Assembly: GCA_959606495.1 (NCBI GenBank)
Contig: CAUHJB010000004.1
Location: 12,813-76,812, forward strand
DNA: 64,000 nucleotides
Source: an uncultured Collinsella sp.
GTDB lineage: Bacteria > Actinomycetota > Coriobacteriia > Coriobacteriales > Coriobacteriaceae
Direction of reading: 5' to 3'
Shown: positions 15,401 to 51,757 of the stretch, piece after piece
How positions within the stretch are numbered: the first letter of the stretch is position 1
Layout: the number at the start of each line of letters is the position of its first letter
Translations under genes and position numbers: made by a program
Notes under the pieces: model-generated
Told to the model about the DNA's origin: nothing
What the model saw: the letters and a program-made list of their open reading frames with translations, nothing else
Databases searched by the model: none

Positions 15401-16091
15401 CACGGCGCGCCTGACCGCACTTTCCGAGTTCCAAGACCTGGGCAGCGGCATGCGCATCGCCATGCGCGACCTGGAGATCCGCGGCGCCGGTTCGCTTATG
15501 GGCGCCGAACAGCACGGTAACCTGTCGAGTGTGGGCTTCGACCTGTTTACGCAGATGCTGGGCCAGGCCGTGGCCGAGGCGCGCGGCGATGGCGATGCCG
15601 GCGTGGAGGCGGCGAGCGTGGGCATCAACCTGCCGGCCGACTACTTCTTGTCCGAGGAGTACATGCCGGCGGTGGACCAGCGCGTGCTCGTGTACCGCAA
15701 ACTCGCGGCGGCTGAGGACCTGGAGAGTGTCGACGAGGTGCAGGAGGAGACCGAGGCCGCGCATGGTGAGCTGCCGTTGGCGGGACTCAACCTGTTCAAC
15801 CGCGCGCGCATCCGCATTCGCGGCGAGCGCCTGGGGCTCGAGAGCGTCACGCTCAGCGGTGGGCGCATTACCTTCCTGGGGGTTGACGTTCCCAAGAAGG
15901 TAGCCTTTGAGTTCAAGAATCGCTATGGCGCGGTGAACTTCCCCAAGAGCCGCAAGCTGTCGGTGCCCTACAAGGCGGGCGCCGGTGCGGGCAGCGGCCT
16001 GGGCCGCGGTTTCGACGCCAACGACGGCACCGGCCCCGTGGCAGCCGCCCTCATGCTGCTGCAGCAATTGGGTGCAAGCGACGACGACTGA
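12459..16091 (+). CDS. mfd: Transcription-repair coupling factor
   Basis: About 1210 aa. CarD-like segment, helicase motifs GDVGFGKTEVALRA and DEEQRFGV, TRCF C-terminus. GGAGGA SD before the ATG at 12459. Confidence 0.93.
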   Translation: MLIHRIAAQLYTAEALQTVEAGLDSGEDVTLAVSQSGRTLMAAAQFARRPRPTVYIVSGEDAADRAARSLAAYVGLAHVCRFPERKDYPWREQAPDDAVVAQRCEALGRIVRGDNCIMVASARALLRCVPPVESRYWESTTFAVGEEIPFDEVPQRLVGMGYTNAGAVDAPGLFRVHGDTVEVFPAQEKAPVRIEFFGDEIDRIRRMVSSTGQTIGNEDSIEIFPCRELALTDDAVHNMHVALYRASQDDSKLAALLEMVDARIVTPELDRFLPVMYGQTVSPLSHVSGKALVVLSEPRSLFDDCLRAYEDIEARAGEAGVDRLDGLYVRAQQLDFGSQQRLNYVSLIRAGGAVTAELKIEQPAIAGSDNRFMTRVQEVVGKRYACVFAIPDRGARESMELTFGDEGITFEESLTAAPENAGAIGDRVRVAAADSADRAARQEAHASIRERKADALNARSLEAGAAQAAAGAAVPTISRGRVTFVDAALPQGVVVPDANLAVFSIADLNARMDANRARSRRKVDITQITFPFKPGDYVVHATHGIALFSEIARQEVGGKERDYFLLEYADGDKLYVPLEQVDRITRYVGPDGDKPRLTRLNTADWTRATNKARKNAKKLAFDLVDLYTRRSSITGIACPPDTPEQIEMEQSFPYDETRDQLEAIADIKADMEAPKPMDRLLCGDVGFGKTEVALRAAFKCVDSGRQVMVLCPTTILAQQHYETFFERFAPFGLEVEVLSRFRTPAQQKRALKAFAEGTIDVLIGTHRLLSADVNPKNLGLVIIDEEQRFGVQHKEQLKNLREQIDVLTLSATPIPRTMQMATSGVRDMSLITTPPTGRRPVIVHVGEYDPDVVSAAIRLEVGRGGQVYYVSNRVKTIDDAVARVREAAPEARVGVAHGKMSPREVEDVMIEFATKKIDVLIATTIVESGIDNATANTLIIEDSQRLGLAQLYQLKGRVGRSATQAYAYFMFPGELPLTEEATARLTALSEFQDLGSGMRIAMRDLEIRGAGSLMGAEQHGNLSSVGFDLFTQMLGQAVAEARGDGDAGVEAASVGINLPADYFLSEEYMPAVDQRVLVYRKLAAAEDLESVDEVQEETEAAHGELPLAGLNLFNRARIRIRGERLGLESVTLSGGRITFLGVDVPKKVAFEFKNRYGAVNFPKSRKLSVPYKAGAGAGSGLGRGFDANDGTGPVAAALMLLQQLGASDDD

Positions 16092-16147
16092 TGGGTCGAC
16101 GCTGCAAACGCTCCATTTGGGCAATCTGATCCCATCGAAAGGAAAGC

Positions 16148-18160: not shown

Positions 18161-18751
18161 ATGCCCGAGATGTCCGAGCCGACGATTCGCCTGGCGACGC
18201 CCGATGATGCGCCGGCGTTGCTTGCCATCTATGAGCCGTATGTGCGCCAGACGGCGATTACCTGCGAATACGAGGTGCCGAGCGTTGAGGAGTTCGCCGG
18301 GCGTATTGAGCGTACGCTCAAGCGCTATCCGTATCTGGTGATGGAGTTGGACGGGCGCCCGGTAGGCTATGCCTATGTGAGTCCGCTCAACAGCCGCGAG
18401 GCATACGACTGGTCGGTCGAGACATCGATCTACCTGGCACGCGATGTGCGCCATGGCGGACTGGGTCGCAAGTTGCATGATGCGCTCAAGCAGTGCCTGA
18501 TCGCGATGGGCATCACCAACATGTGCGCGCTCATTGCCGTGCCGCACGACAAGGACGACGAGTACCTGACGCACAACAGCCAGGATTTCCATGCCCATAT
18601 GGGGTATCGCCTGGTGGGCGCCTTCGACCGCTGCGCCCAAAAGTTCGGTCGCTGGTACGACATGTGCTGGATGGAGCTGGTTCTAGCCGAGCGCGTCCCC
18701 AACCAGCCCAAACCAACCTGGTTTCCCGACCTCCCCAAACCTACCATTTAG
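18161..18751 (+). CDS. GNAT N-acetyltransferase (phosphinothricin acetyltransferase-like)
   Basis: IRLATPDDAPALLAIYEPYV and RHGGLGRKL acetyl-CoA motif. GGGGGAGGGG SD before the ATG at 18161. Confidence 0.8.
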   Translation: MPEMSEPTIRLATPDDAPALLAIYEPYVRQTAITCEYEVPSVEEFAGRIERTLKRYPYLVMELDGRPVGYAYVSPLNSREAYDWSVETSIYLARDVRHGGLGRKLHDALKQCLIAMGITNMCALIAVPHDKDDEYLTHNSQDFHAHMGYRLVGAFDRCAQKFGRWYDMCWMELVLAERVPNQPKPTWFPDLPKPTI

Positions 18752-18774
18752 GGACAGGTTTATTTTGGCAGGTT
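18738..18774 (+). repeat. Family B repeat, copy B1
   Basis: AACCTACCATTTAGGGACAGGTTTATTTTGGCAGGTT. Contains the TAG stop of the GNAT gene and the TTA (reverse TAA) stop of the convergent GntR gene. Confidence 0.8.
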
Positions 18775-19700: not shown

Positions 19701-20693
19701 ATGACTACTCAGGAACAGGTTAAGGACGTCGTCTCCCAGGTTTTGGCTGACAAGGCAGACAAGGGCGGCATCAAGCGCGTCGTGTGGATTGGCGCCGGCG
19801 GATCCAACGGCGGCAACTATCCTGCCCAGTACTTTATGGAGCACGAGGCCACGCAGGTCGTGAGCTCCAGTTACACCAGCAACGAGTTCGTGCATGCCAC
19901 CCCGGCCTACGTCAACGAGAACACCCTGGCCGTCGTCGTGTCCATGCGCGGCACCAAGGAGACCATCGTCGCCGCCCAGGTCGCCAAGGACCACGGCGCC
20001 AGCACCATCGCCATCTATGTTGACGAGTCCGGCCTCACCGAGGTCTGCGACTACAAGATCCAGTATGACAGCCTGGCCGTTGACGAGTCCTGCATGGGCC
20101 GTACCAACTCCGCCGTCGTGACCATGATCGCCATGGAACTCACGCAGCAGACCGAGGGCTATGCCGAGTACGAGACCGCTATGGCCGCTTTCGACCTGGT
20201 CGACCCCATCTATCGCAAGGCCGTCGAGTACACCCGTCCGCTCGCTGCCAAGTGGGCCGAGCAGAACGCCGACAAGCCCTGCATCAACGTCATGGCTCAG
20301 GGCCCGCTCTTTGGTGCCGCCTACGTCTTTAGCATCTGCAATGTGCAGGAGATGCTGCAGATCGACTCCTGCACCATCAACACCTGCGACTTCTTCCACG
20401 GCCCCTTCGAGATCCTGGACAAGCGCACCTCGCTGTTCCAGCTCATCAGCGTCGGCCGCAGCCGCTGCAACGACGAGCGCGGCATCCGTTTCGTCAACCA
20501 GTACGGTGGCGATCGCGTCTATCAGCTCGACGCCAAGGAGCTTGGCCTCAACGACATCAAGGACAGCGTGAGCGAATACTTCAACCACCTGATCTTTGCG
20601 CCGATCCTCAACAACGTGTACATGCGCGCGCTCTCTGCCGTCACCCACAAGGACTACATGACGCGCCGCTACATGTGGAAGCTCGATTACTAA
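19701..20693 (+). CDS. SIS-domain sugar-phosphate isomerase/deglycase, FrlB-like (paralog 1)
   Basis: Two SIS repeats (GAGGSNGG, SMRGTKETI). The C-terminal RRYMWKLDY is shared with the paralogs at 25021 and 32085. Confidence 0.8.
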   Translation: MTTQEQVKDVVSQVLADKADKGGIKRVVWIGAGGSNGGNYPAQYFMEHEATQVVSSSYTSNEFVHATPAYVNENTLAVVVSMRGTKETIVAAQVAKDHGASTIAIYVDESGLTEVCDYKIQYDSLAVDESCMGRTNSAVVTMIAMELTQQTEGYAEYETAMAAFDLVDPIYRKAVEYTRPLAAKWAEQNADKPCINVMAQGPLFGAAYVFSICNVQEMLQIDSCTINTCDFFHGPFEILDKRTSLFQLISVGRSRCNDERGIRFVNQYGGDRVYQLDAKELGLNDIKDSVSEYFNHLIFAPILNNVYMRALSAVTHKDYMTRRYMWKLDY

Positions 20694-25020: not shown

Positions 25021-26004
25021 ATGTACGAGATCGACCTTAACCTCCCTAAGCAGATCGTCGCTGACGTCCTGTCCAACCACGAGATCCACAGCGTCGCCTT
25101 CGTCGGCTGCGGCGCTTCCATGTCCGACCTTTACCCCGCCAAGTACTTCCTGGCCAACAACACGGACAAGCTGAACGTTCAGATCTTCACCGCTAACGAG
25201 TTCAACTACGACACGCCTTCCTGGGTCAACGAGCACACCTTCGTGATCACCTGCTCCCTCGGTGGCTCCACGCCCGAGACCGTCGAGGCCAACAAGACCG
25301 CCAAGAAGCACAACTGCCCGGTCGTCTCCCTCACCAACAAGGCTGGCTCCGCTCTGACCGTCGATGCCGACCACGTCATCGTTCACGGCTTCCACGCCAA
25401 CTACGCTGCCAAGTGCGAGAAGCCCGGCTATGCCATCGCTCTTGCTCTCGAGATCCTTCAGCAGACCGAGGGCTATGACCACTACGAGGACATGATCACC
25501 GGCCTCACCAACATCTTCGATCTCTGCGAGAACGCCGCTCAGCACTGCAAGAAGCTCGCCAAGAAGTTCGCCGAGGACTTCAAGGACGACAAGATGATCT
25601 ACTTCATGGCTTCCGGTGCCTCCGAGAAGATGGCTTATTCTCATGCCGCCTTCCTGTTCACCGAGATGCAGTGGATCGACGCCGCCGCCTACAACACCGG
25701 CGAGTACTTCCACGGCCCGTTCGAGGTTTCCACCGAGGGTAAGCCCTACGTCTTCTTCATGTCCGATGGCGCCACCCGTCCGATGGACGCCCGCGCCCTC
25801 ACCTTCCTTGAGCGCATGGGCGCCAAGGTCGCTCTGATCGACTCCAAGGACTACGGCCTGGCTGACGCCGTGCCCGCGAGCGTCGTCACCTACTTCAACC
25901 CGCTGCTGCACCTCGCCGTTATGCGCGAGTACGGCAACCAGATCGCCGAGGCCCGTCAGCACCCGCTGACCATGCGTCGCTACATGTGGAAGCTTTCCTA
26001 CTAA
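25021..26004 (+). CDS. SIS-domain FrlB-like protein (paralog 2)
   Basis: SIS motifs (GCGASMS, CSLGGSTPETV) and C-terminal RRYMWKLSY. Confidence 0.8.
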   Translation: MYEIDLNLPKQIVADVLSNHEIHSVAFVGCGASMSDLYPAKYFLANNTDKLNVQIFTANEFNYDTPSWVNEHTFVITCSLGGSTPETVEANKTAKKHNCPVVSLTNKAGSALTVDADHVIVHGFHANYAAKCEKPGYAIALALEILQQTEGYDHYEDMITGLTNIFDLCENAAQHCKKLAKKFAEDFKDDKMIYFMASGASEKMAYSHAAFLFTEMQWIDAAAYNTGEYFHGPFEVSTEGKPYVFFMSDGATRPMDARALTFLERMGAKVALIDSKDYGLADAVPASVVTYFNPLLHLAVMREYGNQIAEARQHPLTMRRYMWKLSY

Positions 26005-26158: not shown

Positions 26159-26794
26159 ATGCGTATGATCAAGGCAGTGCTGTTTGATATGGACGGCGTG
26201 CTGGTCGATACCGAGTGGTTCTACAACCGCCGTCGCGTGGCGTTTATGGAAGAGAAGGGGTTCCACTTTGACGAGATCCCCGATCTTTCGGGGTCTAACG
26301 AGCCTGCCATTTGGGAGGCGCTGGTGCCCGACGATGTTGAGCTGCGCGAGCGCCTGTGCGTGGAGTACAAGCATGTCTATAGCCCGGACCATCCCGTTCC
26401 GTATGCCGAGCTGCTCAACGAGCAGACGGAGCCGGTGATGCGTGAGCTGCACGAGCGCGGCGTGAAGTGCGCCATCGCGAGCTCGTCCTATCGCGAGTTG
26501 ATTGACGAGCTGGTGGAGATCGCTGGTATCGCCGACGTGCTGGACTACACCATCAGCGGTCACGAGTGCAGCGCGTTTAAGCCCGACCCCGAGATCTACC
26601 TGCGTGCCATGGAGGCACTGGGGGTGGAGCCTGCCGAGTGCCTGGTTATCGAGGACTCGCCGTTGGGTATCGAGGCCGGCAAGCGCTCCGGCGCCCGAGT
26701 CCTGGCGCTGCGTCCGCACGAGGGCGTCAACCTGGATCAGTCCGCCGCCGACGTTGTCATCGACAGCCTGACTGACATCCTACCTGCCATTTAG
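26159..26794 (+). CDS. HAD-superfamily phosphatase (beta-phosphoglucomutase-like subfamily)
   Basis: Motif I LFDMDGVLVDTE, IASSS, KPDPEIY, EDSPLGIEAG. Confidence 0.85.
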   Translation: MRMIKAVLFDMDGVLVDTEWFYNRRRVAFMEEKGFHFDEIPDLSGSNEPAIWEALVPDDVELRERLCVEYKHVYSPDHPVPYAELLNEQTEPVMRELHERGVKCAIASSSYRELIDELVEIAGIADVLDYTISGHECSAFKPDPEIYLRAMEALGVEPAECLVIEDSPLGIEAGKRSGARVLALRPHEGVNLDQSAADVVIDSLTDILPAI

Positions 26795-26838
26795 GGACAG
26801 GTTTATTTTTGTCAGGTTTTACCTGGGCAAATGCCGAA
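26779..26838 (+). repeat. Family B repeat, copy B3
   Basis: CCTACCTGCCATTTAGGGACAGGTTTATTTTTGTCAGGTTTTACCTGGGCAAATGCCGAA. Supplies the HAD TAG stop. Confidence 0.8.
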
Positions 26839-28115: not shown

Positions 28116-28835
28116 ATGCCTGCACCCAAAAATGCCCCGCTTTACCAGCAGATTTACGACGAGATCAAGGATGCGATCGAGAAAGGTGTTTATGCACCCA
28201 AGGAGCGTATTCCGTCCGAGCTCGAGCTAGCCGAGCAGTACGAGGTGAGCCGAATTACGGTGCGTCGCGCCGTCGAGGAGCTGTGCTCCGATGGCTACCT
28301 GGTTAAGCAGCAGGGCCGTGGCACCTTTGTTTCCACGCCGCACATCAATCGCCAATTTCACGCCTCGACGCTGCAGACGTTTACCGCGCTGTGTGCCGGC
28401 AACGGCATGAAGGCCGGTGCGCACGTAATCGATCGCCAGATTGTGCCGGCGCGCCAAAACGAGATGGAGTTCTTTGGCCTGCAGAAGGATGCGCTGCTGC
28501 TGCACATCAAGCGCGTGCGTACTGCCGACGGCGAGCCCATCTTTGAAGAGAACATCTTTGTGCCGTTTGACGCCTACCGTGAGCTGTTGACGGCCGATCT
28601 TGAGGACAAGTCGATTTTTGCCGAGGTCGAGCGTGTTGGCGGAACGCCGATTGTCTCGGTTGGTTACCGTACGGTCGAAGCCGTTCGCGCCAACGCCGAG
28701 CAGGCGGCTGAGCTGGGCATTGCTCCGCACGATCCGCTGCTCAACCTGCGCGCCGGCTTTATCGGACCCAATGGCGAGCCGGTCCTGATGGGTAAGCAGT
28801 ACTACGTGGGATCGCGCTACGTTATGGTCATGTAG
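28116..28835 (+). CDS. GntR family regulator, HutC/UTRA subfamily (paralog 2)
   Basis: LYQQIYDEIKDAIEKGVY..IPSELELAEQYEVSRITVRRAVEEL wHTH plus UTRA. Confidence 0.88.
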   Translation: MPAPKNAPLYQQIYDEIKDAIEKGVYAPKERIPSELELAEQYEVSRITVRRAVEELCSDGYLVKQQGRGTFVSTPHINRQFHASTLQTFTALCAGNGMKAGAHVIDRQIVPARQNEMEFFGLQKDALLLHIKRVRTADGEPIFEENIFVPFDAYRELLTADLEDKSIFAEVERVGGTPIVSVGYRTVEAVRANAEQAAELGIAPHDPLLNLRAGFIGPNGEPVLMGKQYYVGSRYVMVM

Positions 28836-28840
28836 CTCTA

Positions 28841-29005
28841 GTTGCGCGGTTTTCCAAACCGCGCAACGGCTCGACGCTACAAGCCCGCCAGAGCGGCAAT
28901 CTGCCTTTCAACTTCGGCGGCATGACCAGAAGATCAATGTCGCCTTGTTTCAAGGCACCTTGCTCGCTCTGGCGGGCTTTCGCTGACATTGCCAAAACAT
29001 CGACT
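28841..29005 (+). repeat. Family C structured element, copy C1 (candidate ncRNA)
   Basis: Shares conserved blocks and three covarying helices with 51471-51640. Confidence 0.7.
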
Positions 29006-29013
29006 ACCCGCAG

Positions 29014-29109
29014 AATGAGCGTGGATAATCTCCCGTTTTTGGCTCGGTTATGACCTCAAAGCGGGAGATTATCCACGCTCATCCGGAAAGTGTCCAAATA
29101 TCCACGCTC
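29014..29109. repeat. Family A repeat array A1
   Basis: GAGCGTGGATAATCTCCCG (29017-29035), its inverted copy (29062-29080), and a further inverted unit GTCCAAATATCCACGCTC (29092-29109). Confidence 0.85.
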
Positions 29110-32084: not shown

Positions 32085-33053
32085 ATGAACGCACATGATC
32101 TGATTCAGGAAATCATCGAGCGCAAAGGCAAGATCGAGAACGTCTTTTGGATCGCCTGCGGCGGTTCGATGATCGACCTGATGCCGGCCAACGAGCTGCT
32201 CAAGCGCGAGGCCACCACGTTTACCTCGACGGTCTACACGGCGCGCGAGTTTTGCCTGATGGCCCCCAAGAGTCTTGGCGAGAAGTCGCTCGTCATCGCT
32301 TGCAGCCACAGCGGCAACACGCAGGAGGTCGTCGACGGCTGCGAGATGGCGCTGGCCGCCGGCGCCGAGGTCGTCGCCCTCACCGACTGCGAGGGCTCCA
32401 AGATCGATAACGGCAAGTGGACCACCTGGGTCTACCCTTGGGGCGAGGGCGTGTCGCAGGCCGAGGTGCCGCAGGGCATCGGCGCCCTGATCGCCGCCGA
32501 GCTGCTCGACCAGCAGGAAGGCTACGAGGCGCTCGCCGACATGTACGAGGGCCTTAAGCAGATGGATGTGCTGCTGCCCGCCGCCCGCGAGAAGGTCAAC
32601 GCCGAGCTGGGCGCCCGCTTTGCCGAGCTCTGCCAGCAGCACAAGTTCTTCTATATCCTGGGGTCCGGCCCCAACTTTAGCCAGACCTACGCCATGGCCA
32701 TCTGCTCGCTCATGGAGATGCAATGGCAGCACTGCTGCTACATCCACTCCGGCGAGTACTTCCACGGCCCGTTCGAGGCCACCGAGCCCGGCGTGTTCTA
32801 CTTTGTGCAGCTCGGATCGGGCGAGTGCCGCCCCATGGAGGAGCGCGCCCTTGCGTTCCTCAACACGCACACCGACACGATTATGGTGCTCGATGCGCTC
32901 GAGTACGGCGTGGGCGAGGTACCTGCCAGCGTGCGTTCGTTCCTAGAGCCGATCTTCTTCTACGCGATGAGCTGCGAGCTGCGTGCCGCCCGCGGCAAGG
33001 TGTTCGACCACAGCCCCGAGTTCCGCCGCTACATGGGCATCGAGCAGTACTAA
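32085..33053 (+). CDS. SIS-domain FrlB-like protein (paralog 3)
   Basis: ACGGSMIDL and CSHSGNTQEV SIS motifs, C-terminal RRYMGIEQY. AAGGAGGA SD. Confidence 0.8.
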   Translation: MNAHDLIQEIIERKGKIENVFWIACGGSMIDLMPANELLKREATTFTSTVYTAREFCLMAPKSLGEKSLVIACSHSGNTQEVVDGCEMALAAGAEVVALTDCEGSKIDNGKWTTWVYPWGEGVSQAEVPQGIGALIAAELLDQQEGYEALADMYEGLKQMDVLLPAAREKVNAELGARFAELCQQHKFFYILGSGPNFSQTYAMAICSLMEMQWQHCCYIHSGEYFHGPFEATEPGVFYFVQLGSGECRPMEERALAFLNTHTDTIMVLDALEYGVGEVPASVRSFLEPIFFYAMSCELRAARGKVFDHSPEFRRYMGIEQY

Positions 33054-35548: not shown

Positions 35549-35591
35549 GCCGCTGTCGTGGCTGTGGCTGCGGCCGTGGCCGCCGCGTGAC

Positions 35592-35706
35592 GAGCGTGGA
35601 AATCCGGACACACGAGCGTGGATAATCGGACGTTTGCAACGTGAGCGTGGATAATCTCCCGTTTTTGGCTCACAAGGGGTCTCAAAGCGGGAGATTTTCC
35701 ACGCTC
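35592..35706. repeat. Family A repeat array A2
   Basis: Direct units at 35592, 35614, and 35643, and an inverted unit at 35688-35706. Confidence 0.85.
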
Positions 35707-36003
35707 ATTTTTTCTGCAGCTGCCGTACCGTCGGCATCATCACACGTTGAGTACATGCGGACTACATCGCAAACTAGGTAGTTTCGAGCCACAGCATATT
35801 TTCTTTCAATGAAGTCGGTGGCTTTTGAGGCTCAAAATGTGGAGACAGGGACCTCTCGACAACCGTTCTACCTGCAGATATAAGCCATTGGCCTAAAACA
35901 TCCAAAACCGTCAGGCATTTGGTCAGCATCTGGACAGCATTTGGTCAGACTTCGCATGAAACCGTCTGGTACGTTTGCGCCGTTCCAAGAGTTTGGGGGC
36001 GAC

Positions 36004-36966
36004 ATGGCAAACATGACGGCGAATCAAAGACTCACAAGTCACATTGAAGCATGCGAGCAGCAGATGAGCTGCGTGTACGCGCGCACGACGGCGGAGGCAA
36101 AGCAGATTGAACGGCGGGTGGCGGCGGGAAGTCTCAAGGTGGTCATGCCGGGACTGTATGCGCATCCGGAATACTGGTCCGAGCTCAAGTTTCGGCAGCG
36201 TTATCTGCATCGGGTGCGGGCGCTTGCGCAAAAGCACCCCGACTGGACGTTTTGCTCCTATACGGCGGCCGTTGTCTATGGCCTTTCGGTTTCGCATGCC
36301 AATTTGACGCACATCCATATCGCCGCGATGCCGGCGCAATCGACGACGCCAGGCTCTCAAGTCGTTCGCCATCGGTATGCTTATCGGACACGGGCCAGCG
36401 AGATGGATATTGCCGTGACCGATATCGATCAAACGATTGCGGATTGCCTGGTCGATGCATCGTTTGTCGAAGGGCTGATCATTGCGGACTCGGCGCTCCA
36501 TGAGCAGCTTTTGTCGAATGAGCATCTTGTTGAGACGGTCGACAGGCTTGGCTTGAATCGTCGCGGTGTTGTGACGGCGCGCAGGGTCGCGCGGTGTGCC
36601 GACGGCTTGTCGGAAAACGGCGGCGAGTCCAAGGCGCGTGCGCTGATGATCGAGCACGGCTGGCAGGTTCCGGAGCTGCAAGTTGAGCTGTTCGATCCGG
36701 TTGAGCCGGGAAGGCCGTATCGCGTTGACTATTTGTGGCGCGTGGGTGACCGGTTGATTATTGGGGAGTTCGACGGATTCGTTAAAAGCGAGAAGGCGGC
36801 GGAGGAGGGCAAGCTCGCAAAGGCGCAATTTGACGAGCGCCAGCGTGAGTCGAGGCTTTCGATGCTCGATAACTGCAAGATTGTGCGCTTGTGCTGGGAT
36901 GACCTAAGGGATCCGACAAAGCTCGATCGTAAGCTCAAGGTTGCCGGCGTGCCGCGTGCCTGCTGA
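36004..36966 (+). CDS. Hypothetical protein with a C-terminal Vsr/DUF559-like endonuclease-fold region
   Basis: Lower-GC ORF. C-terminal pattern RVDYLW..IIGEFDGFVKSEK is typical of DUF559-like proteins. Confidence 0.55.
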   Translation: MANMTANQRLTSHIEACEQQMSCVYARTTAEAKQIERRVAAGSLKVVMPGLYAHPEYWSELKFRQRYLHRVRALAQKHPDWTFCSYTAAVVYGLSVSHANLTHIHIAAMPAQSTTPGSQVVRHRYAYRTRASEMDIAVTDIDQTIADCLVDASFVEGLIIADSALHEQLLSNEHLVETVDRLGLNRRGVVTARRVARCADGLSENGGESKARALMIEHGWQVPELQVELFDPVEPGRPYRVDYLWRVGDRLIIGEFDGFVKSEKAAEEGKLAKAQFDERQRESRLSMLDNCKIVRLCWDDLRDPTKLDRKLKVAGVPRAC

Positions 36967-36993
36967 GACGGTTACAGGGTGTTAGGCTGCACG

Positions 36994-37159
36994 AGCGTGG
37001 AAATCCGGACGGATGAGCGTGGGAATTTAGACGTGATTTGGTTGAGCGTGGATTTTCGGACACACGAGCGTGGATTATCGGACGTTTGAATAATGAGCGT
37101 GGATAATCTCCCGTTTTTTGCCCCCGAACAGGCCCAAAGTGGGAAATTGTCCACGCTCA
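36994..37159. repeat. Family A repeat array A3 (largest)
   Basis: Five direct units starting at 36994, 37016, 37045, 37067, and 37096 (spacing 22/29/22/29), plus an inverted unit at 37141-37159. Confidence 0.9.
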
Positions 37160-37186
37160 TTTTTGTGGGGTGCAGCGTGCCAGCCG

Positions 37187-37783: not shown

Positions 37784-37801
37784 CCCGGCTTCCTCTCCCA
37801 A

Positions 37802-37858
37802 ACCTACCAAAAAGGGACAGGTTTATTTTGGCAGGTTTTATCTGGGCAAATGTCGAAA
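37802..37858 (+). repeat. Family B repeat, copy B4
   Basis: ACCTACCAAAAAGGGACAGGTTTATTTTGGCAGGTTTTATCTGGGCAAATGTCGAAA. Confidence 0.8.
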
Positions 37859-41682: not shown

Positions 41683-41772
41683 ATGCAGTCTCCTTTGACG
41701 CCCCAGCGGGGGCGAATCGAGTCGAATCCTCGAGAGTATACCCATATGGGGCCTTCGACCAATCTGCCGCAC

Positions 41773-41915
41773 GAGCGTGGATTTTCGGACACACGAGCGT
41801 GGAAATTCGGACGCCTGCCAAATGACAGTGGATTTTCGGACGAAATCGGCCGCCAAAAGCCCAAAAACCGTCCAAATATCCACTCTCGATATCCGACCGT
41901 TCATAATCCACGCTC
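41773..41915. repeat. Family A repeat array A4
   Basis: Direct units at 41773, 41796, and 41824, and inverted units at 41870-41887 and 41899-41915. Confidence 0.85.
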
Positions 41916-41951
41916 ATCCGCCGCCCGCACAACTCTCATATCTCATTCGTC

Positions 41952-42164
41952 TCTAATACGAGAGATAACAGATAGATGAGAGATAAATATGAGAGATAAC
42001 AATGCTGCAAAGAGACGGGCAACCATGGTATTGTCTCAATATAGATTGTTTTACCAGCAACAACATGTTTAAATGAAACAGATGACAGACATCTTATCTC
42101 TCATCTTTCACTCATATCTAATACGAGAGATAACAGAAAGATGAGAGATAATTACAAGAGATAA
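41952..42164. repeat. Iteron-like GAGAGATAA array including a 35-bp direct repeat
   Basis: TCTAATACGAGAGATAACAGA(T/A)AGATGAGAGATAA at 41952-41986 and 42117-42151. Perfect 9-mers at 41960, 41978, 41991, 42125, and 42143, one inverted at 42094, and a variant at 42156. Confidence 0.85.
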
Positions 42165-42220
42165 CTGAGAGACGAGGGGAATCCGTCTGCAGCATTCTCC
42201 GCAGGACCGAGCGAAGGGAC

Positions 42221-50139: not shown

Positions 50140-51471
50140 ATGAAGTACTTTGGCACCGACGGCTTTCGCGGTGAGGCTAACGTTGGGCTGACGGTAGAGC
50201 ACGCTTATAAGATTGGCCGTTTTGTGGGCTGGTATTACGGCGCCAACCGCGAGCGCAAGGCGCGCGTCATCGTGGGTAAGGACACGCGTCGCTCGAGTTA
50301 TATGTTCGAGGCGGCGCTGGTGAGTGGCCTGGTCGCGAGCGGTGCGGACGCCTATATGCTGCACGTGATCCCCACACCGGGTGTAGCGCATCAGACCGTG
50401 GAAGGCTGCTTCGATTGCGGCATCATGATCAGCGCGAGCCACAACCCGTTTTGCGATAACGGCATTAAGCTCGTCAATAGCGACGGTTTTAAGATGGACG
50501 AGGACGTACTGGAGCTCATCGAGGACTACGTCGATGGCAAGAGCGAGGTGCCGCTGGCCACGGGCAACCACATCGGCGCCACGGTGGACTACATGCAGGG
50601 CCGCAACCGCTACATTGCCTCGCTCATCGCCAGCGCGAACTTTTCGCTGCAGGGCGTCAAGATCGGCATCGACTGCGCCAACGGCTCGGCGTCCTCGGTG
50701 GCCAAGCCGGTGTTCGACGCGCTGGGCGCCGACGTGCGCGTGATCAATGCCGCGCCTGATGGTTTTAACATCAACGTCGACTGCGGCTCCACGCATATGG
50801 AGCGTCTGCAGCGCCACGTGGTGGAGCAGGGCTTGGACGTGGGCTTTGCCTATGACGGCGATGCCGACCGCTGCCTGGCCGTGGACGAGCGCGGCCGCGT
50901 GGTCGATGGCGACCAGATCCTGTACGTGTGCGGCGTGTACCTGAACAAGCACGGTCGCCTTTCGGGCGGTACCGTGGTTCCGACGATTGCCAGCAACTTT
51001 GGCCTGATCAAGTCGTTGGAGCTTGCCGGCCTAAGTGCCGTGACCAGCGGTGTGGGCGACCGTCACGTGTATGCCAAGATGCGCGAGAGCGGTTACAGCC
51101 TAGGCGGCGAGCAGACGGGCCATACGATCTTTGGCGATATCGAGCGCACGGGCGACGGCATTATGACCTCGCTGCGCGTGATGGAAGTGATCCGCGCCGA
51201 GCGCGAGACGCTCTCGCAGCTCACGGCTCCGTGCAAGCTGCTACCGCAGGTGCGGGTGGCCGTGCGCGTGGCGGACAAGGACGCCGCGCTCGAGAACATG
51301 GGCGTGCAGAACGCCATCGCCGAGGCCGAGGCTGCGCTGGCAGGCGAGGGTCGCGTGCTCGTGCGCAAGAGCGGAACCGAGTCGGTTATCCGCGTGCTGG
51401 CCGAGGCGCCCGACCAAGCATCCGCCGATGCCGCCATGAAGCGCATCGCCAACGCACTCGAGGCTCTGTAG
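50140..51471 (+). CDS. glmM: Phosphoglucosamine mutase
   Basis: MKYFGTDGFRGEAN N-terminus, SASHNPFCDNGIK phosphoserine loop, DGDADR metal loop. Confidence 0.93.
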   Translation: MKYFGTDGFRGEANVGLTVEHAYKIGRFVGWYYGANRERKARVIVGKDTRRSSYMFEAALVSGLVASGADAYMLHVIPTPGVAHQTVEGCFDCGIMISASHNPFCDNGIKLVNSDGFKMDEDVLELIEDYVDGKSEVPLATGNHIGATVDYMQGRNRYIASLIASANFSLQGVKIGIDCANGSASSVAKPVFDALGADVRVINAAPDGFNINVDCGSTHMERLQRHVVEQGLDVGFAYDGDADRCLAVDERGRVVDGDQILYVCGVYLNKHGRLSGGTVVPTIASNFGLIKSLELAGLSAVTSGVGDRHVYAKMRESGYSLGGEQTGHTIFGDIERTGDGIMTSLRVMEVIRAERETLSQLTAPCKLLPQVRVAVRVADKDAALENMGVQNAIAEAEAALAGEGRVLVRKSGTESVIRVLAEAPDQASADAAMKRIANALEAL

Positions 51472-51640
51472 TTACGCGGTTTTACCAAACCGCGTAACTG
51501 CTCGACGCTGCAAACGCCCCTAAGCGGCAATCTGACGTTCAATTTCAAGGGCGCGACCAGAAGGTCAGCGCCCTTTCATTTCACGTTATCTTGCTCGCTT
51601 GGGGTCGTTTTCTCTGACGTCGCCAAGACATTAGCGTCAA
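51471..51640 (+). repeat. Family C structured element, copy C2 (candidate ncRNA)
   Basis: Begins inside the glmM stop codon (TAGTTACGCGG). Same architecture as 28841-29005. Confidence 0.7.
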
Positions 51641-51757
51641 CGAGCTACTCATTGGGGACAGTCTTTGCCGATTGGCCGGTTTGCTGGCCGGATGGGCAAG
51701 GACTGTCCCCAACTGCCGGCAGAAAAGGAACGTCCCTAACTGCCGGCCTTCAAGGCC

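Follow-up and report, generated by a model that had tools for sequence, protein, structure and literature searches.

Directly behind the stop codons of two genes in a 64,000-nucleotide (nt) stretch of a Collinsella genome lie two similar, strongly folding sequences, and the question they raise is what such a sequence is and why it should stand there. The whole of this stretch is called the window here, and coordinates refer to it unless a locus is named. The original prediction, made from the letters of the window, placed one copy behind a GntR gene and the other behind glmM, both at or just after a plus-strand stop codon, and proposed a candidate structured RNA. Both copies were found where they had been placed. 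The element to which they belong is a genus-wide interspersed non-coding repeat family of Collinsella, about 170 nt long and previously undescribed, and its folded single strand is kept by selection while the sequences of its helices drift.

The fold and its conservation

Copy 1 occupies positions 28841-29007 of the plus strand (profile hidden Markov model (HMM; nhmmer) match 28839-29003, score 167.7) and copy 2 positions 51471-51640 of the same strand (match 51469-51634, score 161.0). The two are 78% identical over about 165 nt, and a 40-nt pattern derived from both occurs in the window at these two sites only, with 0 expected from shuffles. The family architecture consists of a 12-bp helix (helix 1), the linker CGACGCTGCAA, an interrupted hairpin of around 95 nt, the motif (T)TTTCGCTG with a short U-tract and a second CGCTG, in such a way that CGCTG stands on both sides of the long hairpin, and a tail that exists in several versions.

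In copy 1, helix 1 (28841-28867, from fold and covariation) is a 12-bp hairpin in which GTTGCGCGGTTT pairs with AAACCGCGCAAC around the loop TCC. The linker GGCTCGACGCTACAA (28868-28882) corresponds in the alignment to the family consensus nnnYCGACGCTGCAA, and the long interrupted hairpin (28883-28977, also from fold and covariation) is made up of a variable outer helix, a bulged T, two 2x2 loops (TC/CC and TC/TC), an AAC/GTT helix and a variable inner helix. Its apex is a mini stem-loop, GACC-AGAA-GATC (28924-28935), with the near-invariant family form GACCAGAAGGTC in the alignment, and the TTTCGCTG motif and the variable tail cover positions 28978-29007. In copy 2, sequence and fold give a helix 1 (51471-51498) in which GTTACGCGGTTT pairs with AAACCGCGTAAC around the loop TACC, so that the loop length of this helix differs by 1 nt between copies, and a long hairpin (51514-51608) with B-type outer and inner helices and with loops and apex as in copy 1. 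All these parts lie on the plus strand.

The helix arms first quoted for the outer helix are indeed at 28883-28895 with 28965-28977 and at 51515-51526 with 51596-51607, the second pair of arms including one C-T mismatch and one U-G pair. Two other parts had been misread. What was described as a 13-nt loop, GACCAGAAG(A/G)TCA, folds into the 4-bp stem GACC/GGTC, capped by an AGAA tetraloop and with a single bulged A, and this stem carries one C-A mismatch in copy 1. The blocks GGCAATCTG and TTGCTCGCT, taken to be single-stranded, are mostly paired (GCAA/TTGC, with a bulged T), only the two 2x2 pyrimidine loops TC/CC and TC/TC being left unpaired.

Covariation was studied in 85 distinct aligned copies, for which RNAalifold returned a structure of 51 pairs, 29 of them with compensatory changes. 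Standard pairs fill 97.9% of the cells, compared with 86.4% in shuffles and 29-44% when the partners were slid, and changes on both sides of a pair were found in 472 cells, compared with 146 +/- 8 in shuffles and 12-49 with slid partners; not one of 500 shuffles reached the observed pairing values. In helix 1 alone, 6 of 11 pairs show compensatory changes and 99.5% of the cells are paired, and of the outer helix there are at least six versions with mutual compensation, such as ACCCGCCAGAGCG, ACGCCCCTAAGCG and AGCCATCTGGTGG. Compensated changes were detected also within the set of orthologous glmM copies (GTTACG/CGTAAC, GTTGCG/CGCAAC and GCTACG/CGTAGC). The bulged T, the bulged A, the TC/CC and TC/TC 2x2 loops, the AAC/GTT helix and the apex GACC-AGAA-GGTC are constant across subfamilies. 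Fixed mismatches beside freely compensating helices indicate that selection sees a folded single strand and not duplex DNA, and the argument that stems varying while pairing and loops are kept betray selection on the fold is strongly borne out by the larger set of copies.

The computed fold energy per copy is -86 to -88 kcal/mol, compared with around -49 kcal/mol in shuffles (z of -9.6 and -9.8), and that of the long hairpin is about -63 kcal/mol. For both window copies a strong fold (z near -9.6) is computed for either strand. An extension of helix 1 into the stop codon showed no covariation with the 3' flank, and a third hairpin in the tail gave no consistent fold, with a slight bias to the sense strand only. 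The more divergent relatives of the family have the sense-strand apical loops CTAA, GTAA, GCAA and ATAA.

Spread through the genus and position behind stop codons

With one genome per species, a 20-base pattern was found in at least about 100 contigs, nearly all of them from Collinsella or Coriobacteriaceae. A profile-HMM search of fetched Collinsella loci (0.92 Mb, labelled here with L numbers) yielded 105 full copies plus fragments, distributed over at least 26 genomic sites, and the copy number is around 9-30 per Mb. In C. aerofaciens NZ_OY725717.1, the sole "plasmid" match, the element stands at eight places of a 0.9 Mb replicon. The original statement that the element is not just a duplicated repeat was therefore half right, in that its fold is selected, and half wrong, in that it is an interspersed repeat with all these copies and sites.

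The gathering-threshold scan of the window with Rfam 15 returned two tRNAs only, and scans of both copies with E-values up to 10 gave sub-threshold chance matches, the best of which (E 0.014) was to mir-39, on a neighbouring hairpin; Collinsella-1 (RF01700) was considered and rejected, as it gave no match in any of these scans of the window and the copies. Of the outcomes named as refuting the original prediction, two did not occur, as the additional copies keep the helices and no known end of an insertion sequence (IS) or of a miniature inverted-repeat transposable element (MITE) was matched; no Rfam family was found either. Phage records contained no match to the element. A single true copy was found in IMG/VR, behind the gene that also precedes the chromosomal copies in locus cluster 3, and six weak IMG/VR matches were rejected as chance, inside a gene read by eye as a phage structural gene. 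Literature on Collinsella repeats or on the apical sequence yielded nothing relevant.

The position of the element was counted in 90 copies, considering same-strand open reading frames (ORFs) of at least 60 codons and measuring the distance to the first G of helix 1. The upstream ORF ends between -1 and +19 nt from helix 1 in 85 of the 90 copies, with 78 at 7 nt or less, and in 35 this first G is itself the third base of the TAG stop of the gene. The two window copies follow this pattern. The ORF of the GntR/UTRA regulator (28116-28835, Pfam) ends with the TAG at 28833-28835, and a second in-frame TAG follows at 28839-28841 (TAG CTC TAG, 28833-28841 of the plus strand), whose G at 28841 is base 1 of helix 1 of copy 1. 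The ORF of the GlmM-type mutase (50140-51471, Pfam) ends with the TAG at 51469-51471, and its G is base 1 of helix 1 of copy 2. Clustering of the genes upstream of the copies in the fetched loci gave 26 unrelated clusters, which include glmM, GntR and tyrS and, as read by eye from C-terminal peptides, IleRS-like, sigma factor, DAHP synthase, DEAD-box helicase and LivF genes. The stops used are TAG, TAA and one TGA, and copies in opposite orientation are found 2-5 kb apart, so orientation follows the gene and not the replichore.

Copies without helix 1 and divergent relatives likewise begin 0-10 nt past stop codons. The window contains one of the former, a truncated third copy at 16089-16129 of the plus strand, with the linker and the 5' arm of the long hairpin, which starts at the stop of mfd/TRCF (TGA, 16089-16091) and continues directly into the ribosome-binding site of the following gene. 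L091 (5419-5286, minus strand) and L063 (482-615) contain intact orthologues of this remnant, with the differing apex GCGTAC-GCAA-GTACGC.

Of 85 copies, 48 have the dinucleotide TA immediately ahead of the first G, and in 13 of these 48 the resulting TAG is not the stop of the gene, so TA(G) is part of the element or of its preferred target. At the variable 3' end of copies with a leading TA we found no matching TA or other repeat, and there was no clean empty site for comparison. Genes without the element use TAG in 47%, TAA in 41% and TGA in 11% of cases; an avoidance of TGA was dropped as evidence of targeting because TGA is only about 10% of the stops in these genomes anyway. The stop usage is in itself unusual for a G+C-rich genome (TAG ~50%, TAA ~40% and TGA ~10% in some 560 heuristic genes of the window and the loci). 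A stable hairpin starts within 7 nt past the stop in around 14% of the genes without the element, so short 3' untranslated regions (UTRs) are normal here.

Paralogous copies are around 75-80% identical and orthologous ones 90-98%. In six of nine orthologous sets the divergence of the element was 0.19-0.57 of the rate at 4-fold sites of the adjacent gene, and at three loci some species have the element and others lack it. Types of helix 1 and of the long hairpin occur in mixed combinations, which points to exchange at the conserved linker as the junction where modules are reshuffled. Helix 1 with the linker alone, and the linker with the long hairpin alone, are also found. Nested or partly duplicated copies were detected in L029 and L050, and in two loci, L029 and L105, the arms of an older helix 1 enclose a full element.

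What the element may do behind genes

We consider the element to be a non-autonomous Collinsella repeat family which acts as a 3'-UTR hairpin behind genes, in the manner of the repetitive extragenic palindromic (REP) sequences and bacterial interspersed mosaic elements (BIME) and of the enterobacterial repetitive intergenic consensus (ERIC), and give this reading a probability of about one half. A non-autonomous repeat would spread, probably via single-stranded DNA, and once behind a gene it would serve, or be merely tolerated, as a highly stable hairpin of the 3' UTR by which the upstream transcript is ended or protected. By analogy with those repeats, the hairpins and the UUU(U)C that follows them could form a 3'-end barrier or a weak terminator, by which 3' exonucleases would be kept off the upstream mRNA. 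Helix 1 begins inside the footprint of the terminating ribosome and may also affect termination. As roughly half of the copies have TA ahead of the first G, the element would often supply the TAG of the gene, an insertion that should be harmless at ORF ends, and the invariant loops and apex would imply one specific partner, be it an enzyme that copies single-stranded DNA, an RNA-binding protein or an RNase.

The transcriptional setting is consistent with this reading. The element stands where the transcription unit ends. The downstream gene is convergent in around half of the loci and otherwise starts at least about 100 nt beyond the element, and 9 of 26 loci have a terminator-like hairpin with a T-run on the downstream side, convincing in five or six of them; ordinary terminators downstream of the element make its sense strand part of the 3' UTR of the upstream mRNA. 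In 74 of 85 copies the G+C-rich outer stem leads into (U)UUUCGCUG, and the 8 nt after the outer stem contain four T on the sense strand and two on the antisense.

Several results weigh against this reading. The terminator scan called nothing within either window copy, the stem is about 45 bp long and the U-tract is short, with 3-4 U. Computed with RNA parameters, the antisense strand forms the more stable long hairpin in 78 of 79 copies, owing to the fixed loops, which read as tandem G-A on that strand. The tally of pairs gave 4236 Watson-Crick cells, 65 G:U cells (25 of them from two misaligned columns, which leaves about 40) and 32 A:C cells, in such a way that no excess of G:U over A:C, and thus no wobble signature of either strand, was left after removal of these two columns. 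The invariant internal loops and the apex would be superfluous for a plain exonuclease block or terminator. Distances of the element correlate with synonymous distances in three of five sets and are uncorrelated in the other two, so that gene conversion or re-insertion could mimic constraint. None of the three "empty" orthologous loci held a clean empty site, each of them containing other repeats or a leftover of helix 1, and no mobilising enzyme, terminal inverted repeat or target duplication was found in the examined loci. Of the structured RNA originally proposed it is the selected fold that stands, while neither the counts of G:U and A:C cells nor the relative stabilities of the strands favour RNA over single-stranded DNA as the selected form.

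The equal rarity of G:U and A:C would be expected where both strands, or DNA, matter, and it leads to the alternative that we take most seriously, a real possibility if well short of an even chance: that of a selfish DNA element whose hairpins are the single-stranded recognition structures of a transposase or recombinase, for example a Y1/HUH enzyme of the IS200/RAYT type (RAYT, REP-associated tyrosine transposase). Compensation would then keep mobility, transcription within 3' UTRs would be incidental, and the position at stops would result from the choice of target together with the TAG of the element itself. Enzymes that work on single-stranded DNA make use of extrahelical bases, and the fixed bulges and mismatch loops look like such bases; CGCTG flanks the long hairpin on both sides, and the copies are multiple, polymorphic, nested and modular. 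The enrichment of TA before the first G even where it does not form the stop of the gene is in agreement with such a target, and Collinsella does encode Y1 transposases, namely an IS200-type TnpA (L054) and a RAYT-like gene (L022). However, the only RAYT-like gene found is bounded by a different repeat, the left flank of the element shows no conserved tetra- or pentanucleotide, and targeting by sequence cannot account for a sense placement within 7 nt of the stops of 26 unrelated genes; divergence below the synonymous level at orthologous sites is likewise unexpected of dead insertions.

We know of no bacterial repeat family described so far with such an anchoring to the stop codons of dozens of unrelated genes. 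It is unlikely, though conceivable, that this anchoring is mechanistic, either as a mobile unit that brings its own TAG and is delivered to ORF ends, or as a module of the 3' UTR in which the terminating ribosome opens the first hairpin, in such a way that termination would be coupled to the fate of the mRNA via one dedicated factor reading the invariant loops and the apex.

A regulatory RNA module in the proper sense, that is, a small RNA derived from the 3' UTR or a site where one RNA-binding protein or RNase docks, with termination at the abutting stop coupled to mRNA fate, appears improbable to us. The invariance of apex and internal loops beside varying helices would suit it, as would the strict sense orientation with helix 1 starting within the footprint of the terminating ribosome, the constraint on the element at orthologous loci, and the divergent relatives with sense-strand apical loops of the GNRA type (GUAA and GCAA), which also lie just past stops. 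It is at odds with the missing G:U signal, with upstream genes that have no common functional theme, and with the absence of any promoter or processing signal in the two window copies, where the scan called no promoter; the repeat-like turnover suits a mobile element better.

A site for site-specific recombination, attC- or dif-like, with helix 1 as the crossover palindrome, is very improbable. The likeness to integron attC is in the location directly 3' of ORF stops in a fixed orientation, in a folded strand conserved in structure and not in sequence, and in the fixed bulges or extrahelical bases, to which the foot of helix 1 (GTTRCG...CGYAAC) and the full elements between the arms of an older helix 1 in L029 and L105 can be added. 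Yet GTTRCG...CGYAAC is the reverse of the attC order RYYYAAC...GTTRRRY, the copies are dispersed behind 26 clusters of housekeeping genes without cassette arrays, normal copies have no second helix 1 at their 3' end, and no integrase was seen adjoining any copy; integron attC was rejected on these grounds.

A small protein on the minus strand (ORF 28828-28995, 55 amino acids) or a read-through extension of the upstream gene is scarcely credible, since the minus-strand frame open in copy 1 has stops or frameshifts in B- and C-type copies, each frame is open in 29 of 82 copies at most, there is no conserved ORF, compensatory changes freely alter the peptide and the 1-nt variation in the loop of helix 1 rules out read-through, even though by eye the frame after the TAG of copy 2 is open through the element.

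The genus Collinsella is very diverse and abundant in the human gut, and to our knowledge almost no non-coding elements have been described in it. The family marks the 3' ends of dozens of housekeeping genes per genome. If its hairpins set the 3' ends or the stability of mRNAs, the expression of many core genes would be shaped together, and the anchoring to stop codons, if mechanistic, would give a repeat a new route to harmless sites. The element is in addition a clean marker of the genus and a source of mis-called small ORFs and of assembly breaks.

Neighbouring repeats and comparison with known elements

The 3' side of the element is usually filled by other small hairpin repeats, of GGGGAC types and of the GAGCGTGGATAATCTCCCG type. 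Directly after copy 1 lies a hairpin of the latter, a different repeat family (GAGCGTGGATAATCTCCCG ... CGGGAGATTATCCACGCTC; 29016-29081, no strand assigned), which is also found at 35642-35708 and 37094-37160 (families D8 and D10). Short direct repeats of the GAGCGTGGA type accompany the GAGCGTGGATAATCTCCCG family, and further positions of this group of repeats are 35585-37084 and 41766-41813. Copy 2 is followed by a GGGGAC-type hairpin repeat (51652-51712, no strand assigned), again of a different family, and members of that same family follow the element in many loci. The GGGGAC-type repeats (GTTGGGGACGTTCTT..., GGCACTTGGGGACGTTCC...) occupy the gap between the element and the next gene or terminator and form BIME-like mosaics.

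The element is also a landing pad for IS110-family elements. In two genomes an IS110-family insertion sequence lies in its tail at TTTCGCT/GAC, with CT at both junctions, and the corresponding CGCT/GAC junction is within the TTTCGCTG and tail region of copy 1. Another IS110 element was found within a GGGGAC repeat beside the tyrS copy of C. aerofaciens, and IS110-family loci (PF01548 + PF02371) on Collinsella repeats are those of L004 (~300-1830), L051 and L121 (2745-3857). An IS110 bridge RNA or seekRNA was considered for the element and rejected, as nearly all copies lack a nearby recombinase and IS110 interrupts the tail of the element rather than carrying the element.

The RAYT-like Y1 transposase gene (L022, 4503-5471, PF01797) is the only one in the 0.92 Mb of fetched loci, whole genomes not having been searched. 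It is bounded by 54-nt inverted copies of CCTGCCAAAAAGGGACAGGTTTATTTTGGCAGG, a different family (L022, 4329-5620), which is present in the window at 18734-18774, 26777-26817 and 37797-37837. These repeats around the gene suggest that Collinsella, an actinobacterium, has a REP-RAYT-like system, but with a different repeat. A link of the element to RAYT or IS200 was rejected, since the RAYT-like gene has its own repeat and the IS200-type TnpA in L054 is an unrelated neighbour.

Two further features of the window were noted. Positions 41933-42176 contain A+T-rich direct repeats of a GAGAGATAAC-like unit (family D4). Three paralogous genes (20349-20693, 25663-26004 and 32715-33053) have common 3' ends (...RRYMWKLDY stop), and six other species of Collinsella have the element at the stop of the orthologue of the first gene, a site that is occupied by other repeats in the window.

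We compared the element with known classes. Recoding signals (SECIS, PYLIS or read-through elements) were rejected, as TAG, TAA and one TGA are used and no frame is open in more than the 29 of 82 copies mentioned. A palindrome-associated transposable element (PATE) derived from IS200/IS605 was also rejected, given that the left flank is not one conserved tetra- or pentanucleotide, helix 1 begins right at the boundary and no consistent hairpin forms in the 3' tail. MITEs, including the ERIC and Correia types, were discarded in turn, because no inverted repeat is formed by the 5' end GTTACGCGG... with the 3' end ...GGCGTTGCC and the arms of the long hairpin differ between subfamilies by compensation.

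The bcr1 repeats of the Bacillus cereus group, about 150 nt long, are lineage-specific and, as reported, transcribed, with an RNA fold kept by compensatory changes. The element has no sequence relationship with them, and bcr1 is described with a short target duplication and without abutment to stop codons. ERIC and the Correia elements of Neisseria fold as RNA hairpins that alter the stability or processing of mRNA. They resemble the element as long imperfect palindromes of around 100-150 nt co-transcribed with neighbouring genes; whereas they have terminal inverted repeats, TA target duplications and both orientations, in the Collinsella element the outer arms vary by compensation, the true ends do not form inverted repeats, no duplication was seen and the orientation is fixed.

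REPs stabilise the upstream mRNA, and those near a stop codon can disturb the termination of translation. With REP/BIME of Enterobacteria and Pseudomonas the element shares an extragenic location in 3' UTRs near stops, membership of mosaic clusters and its use as a landing site of the IS110 family. The REP unit is an imperfect palindrome of 20-40 nt, whereas the Collinsella element is composite and of about 170 nt; helix 1 alone (27-28 nt) would fit the size of a REP, yet helix 1, linker and long hairpin are linked in 105 copies. The REP head GT(A/G)G is absent, only the first G being invariant, and the three preceding bases vary (TTA, CTA, GTA, GGG, TTC and others) and are unpaired with the 3' flank. 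A cognate RAYT bounded by the element was not found in the fetched loci, whole genomes not having been covered. REPs number hundreds per genome in alternating orientation, whereas the element is at around 9-30 per Mb and strictly sense. By analogy, the element can be likened to the REP/BIME and ERIC class, as a multi-copy, lineage-specific and hairpin-forming sequence that would be co-transcribed in 3' UTRs, and what is new within these structured intergenic repeats is the anchoring to stop codons together with a strict orientation.

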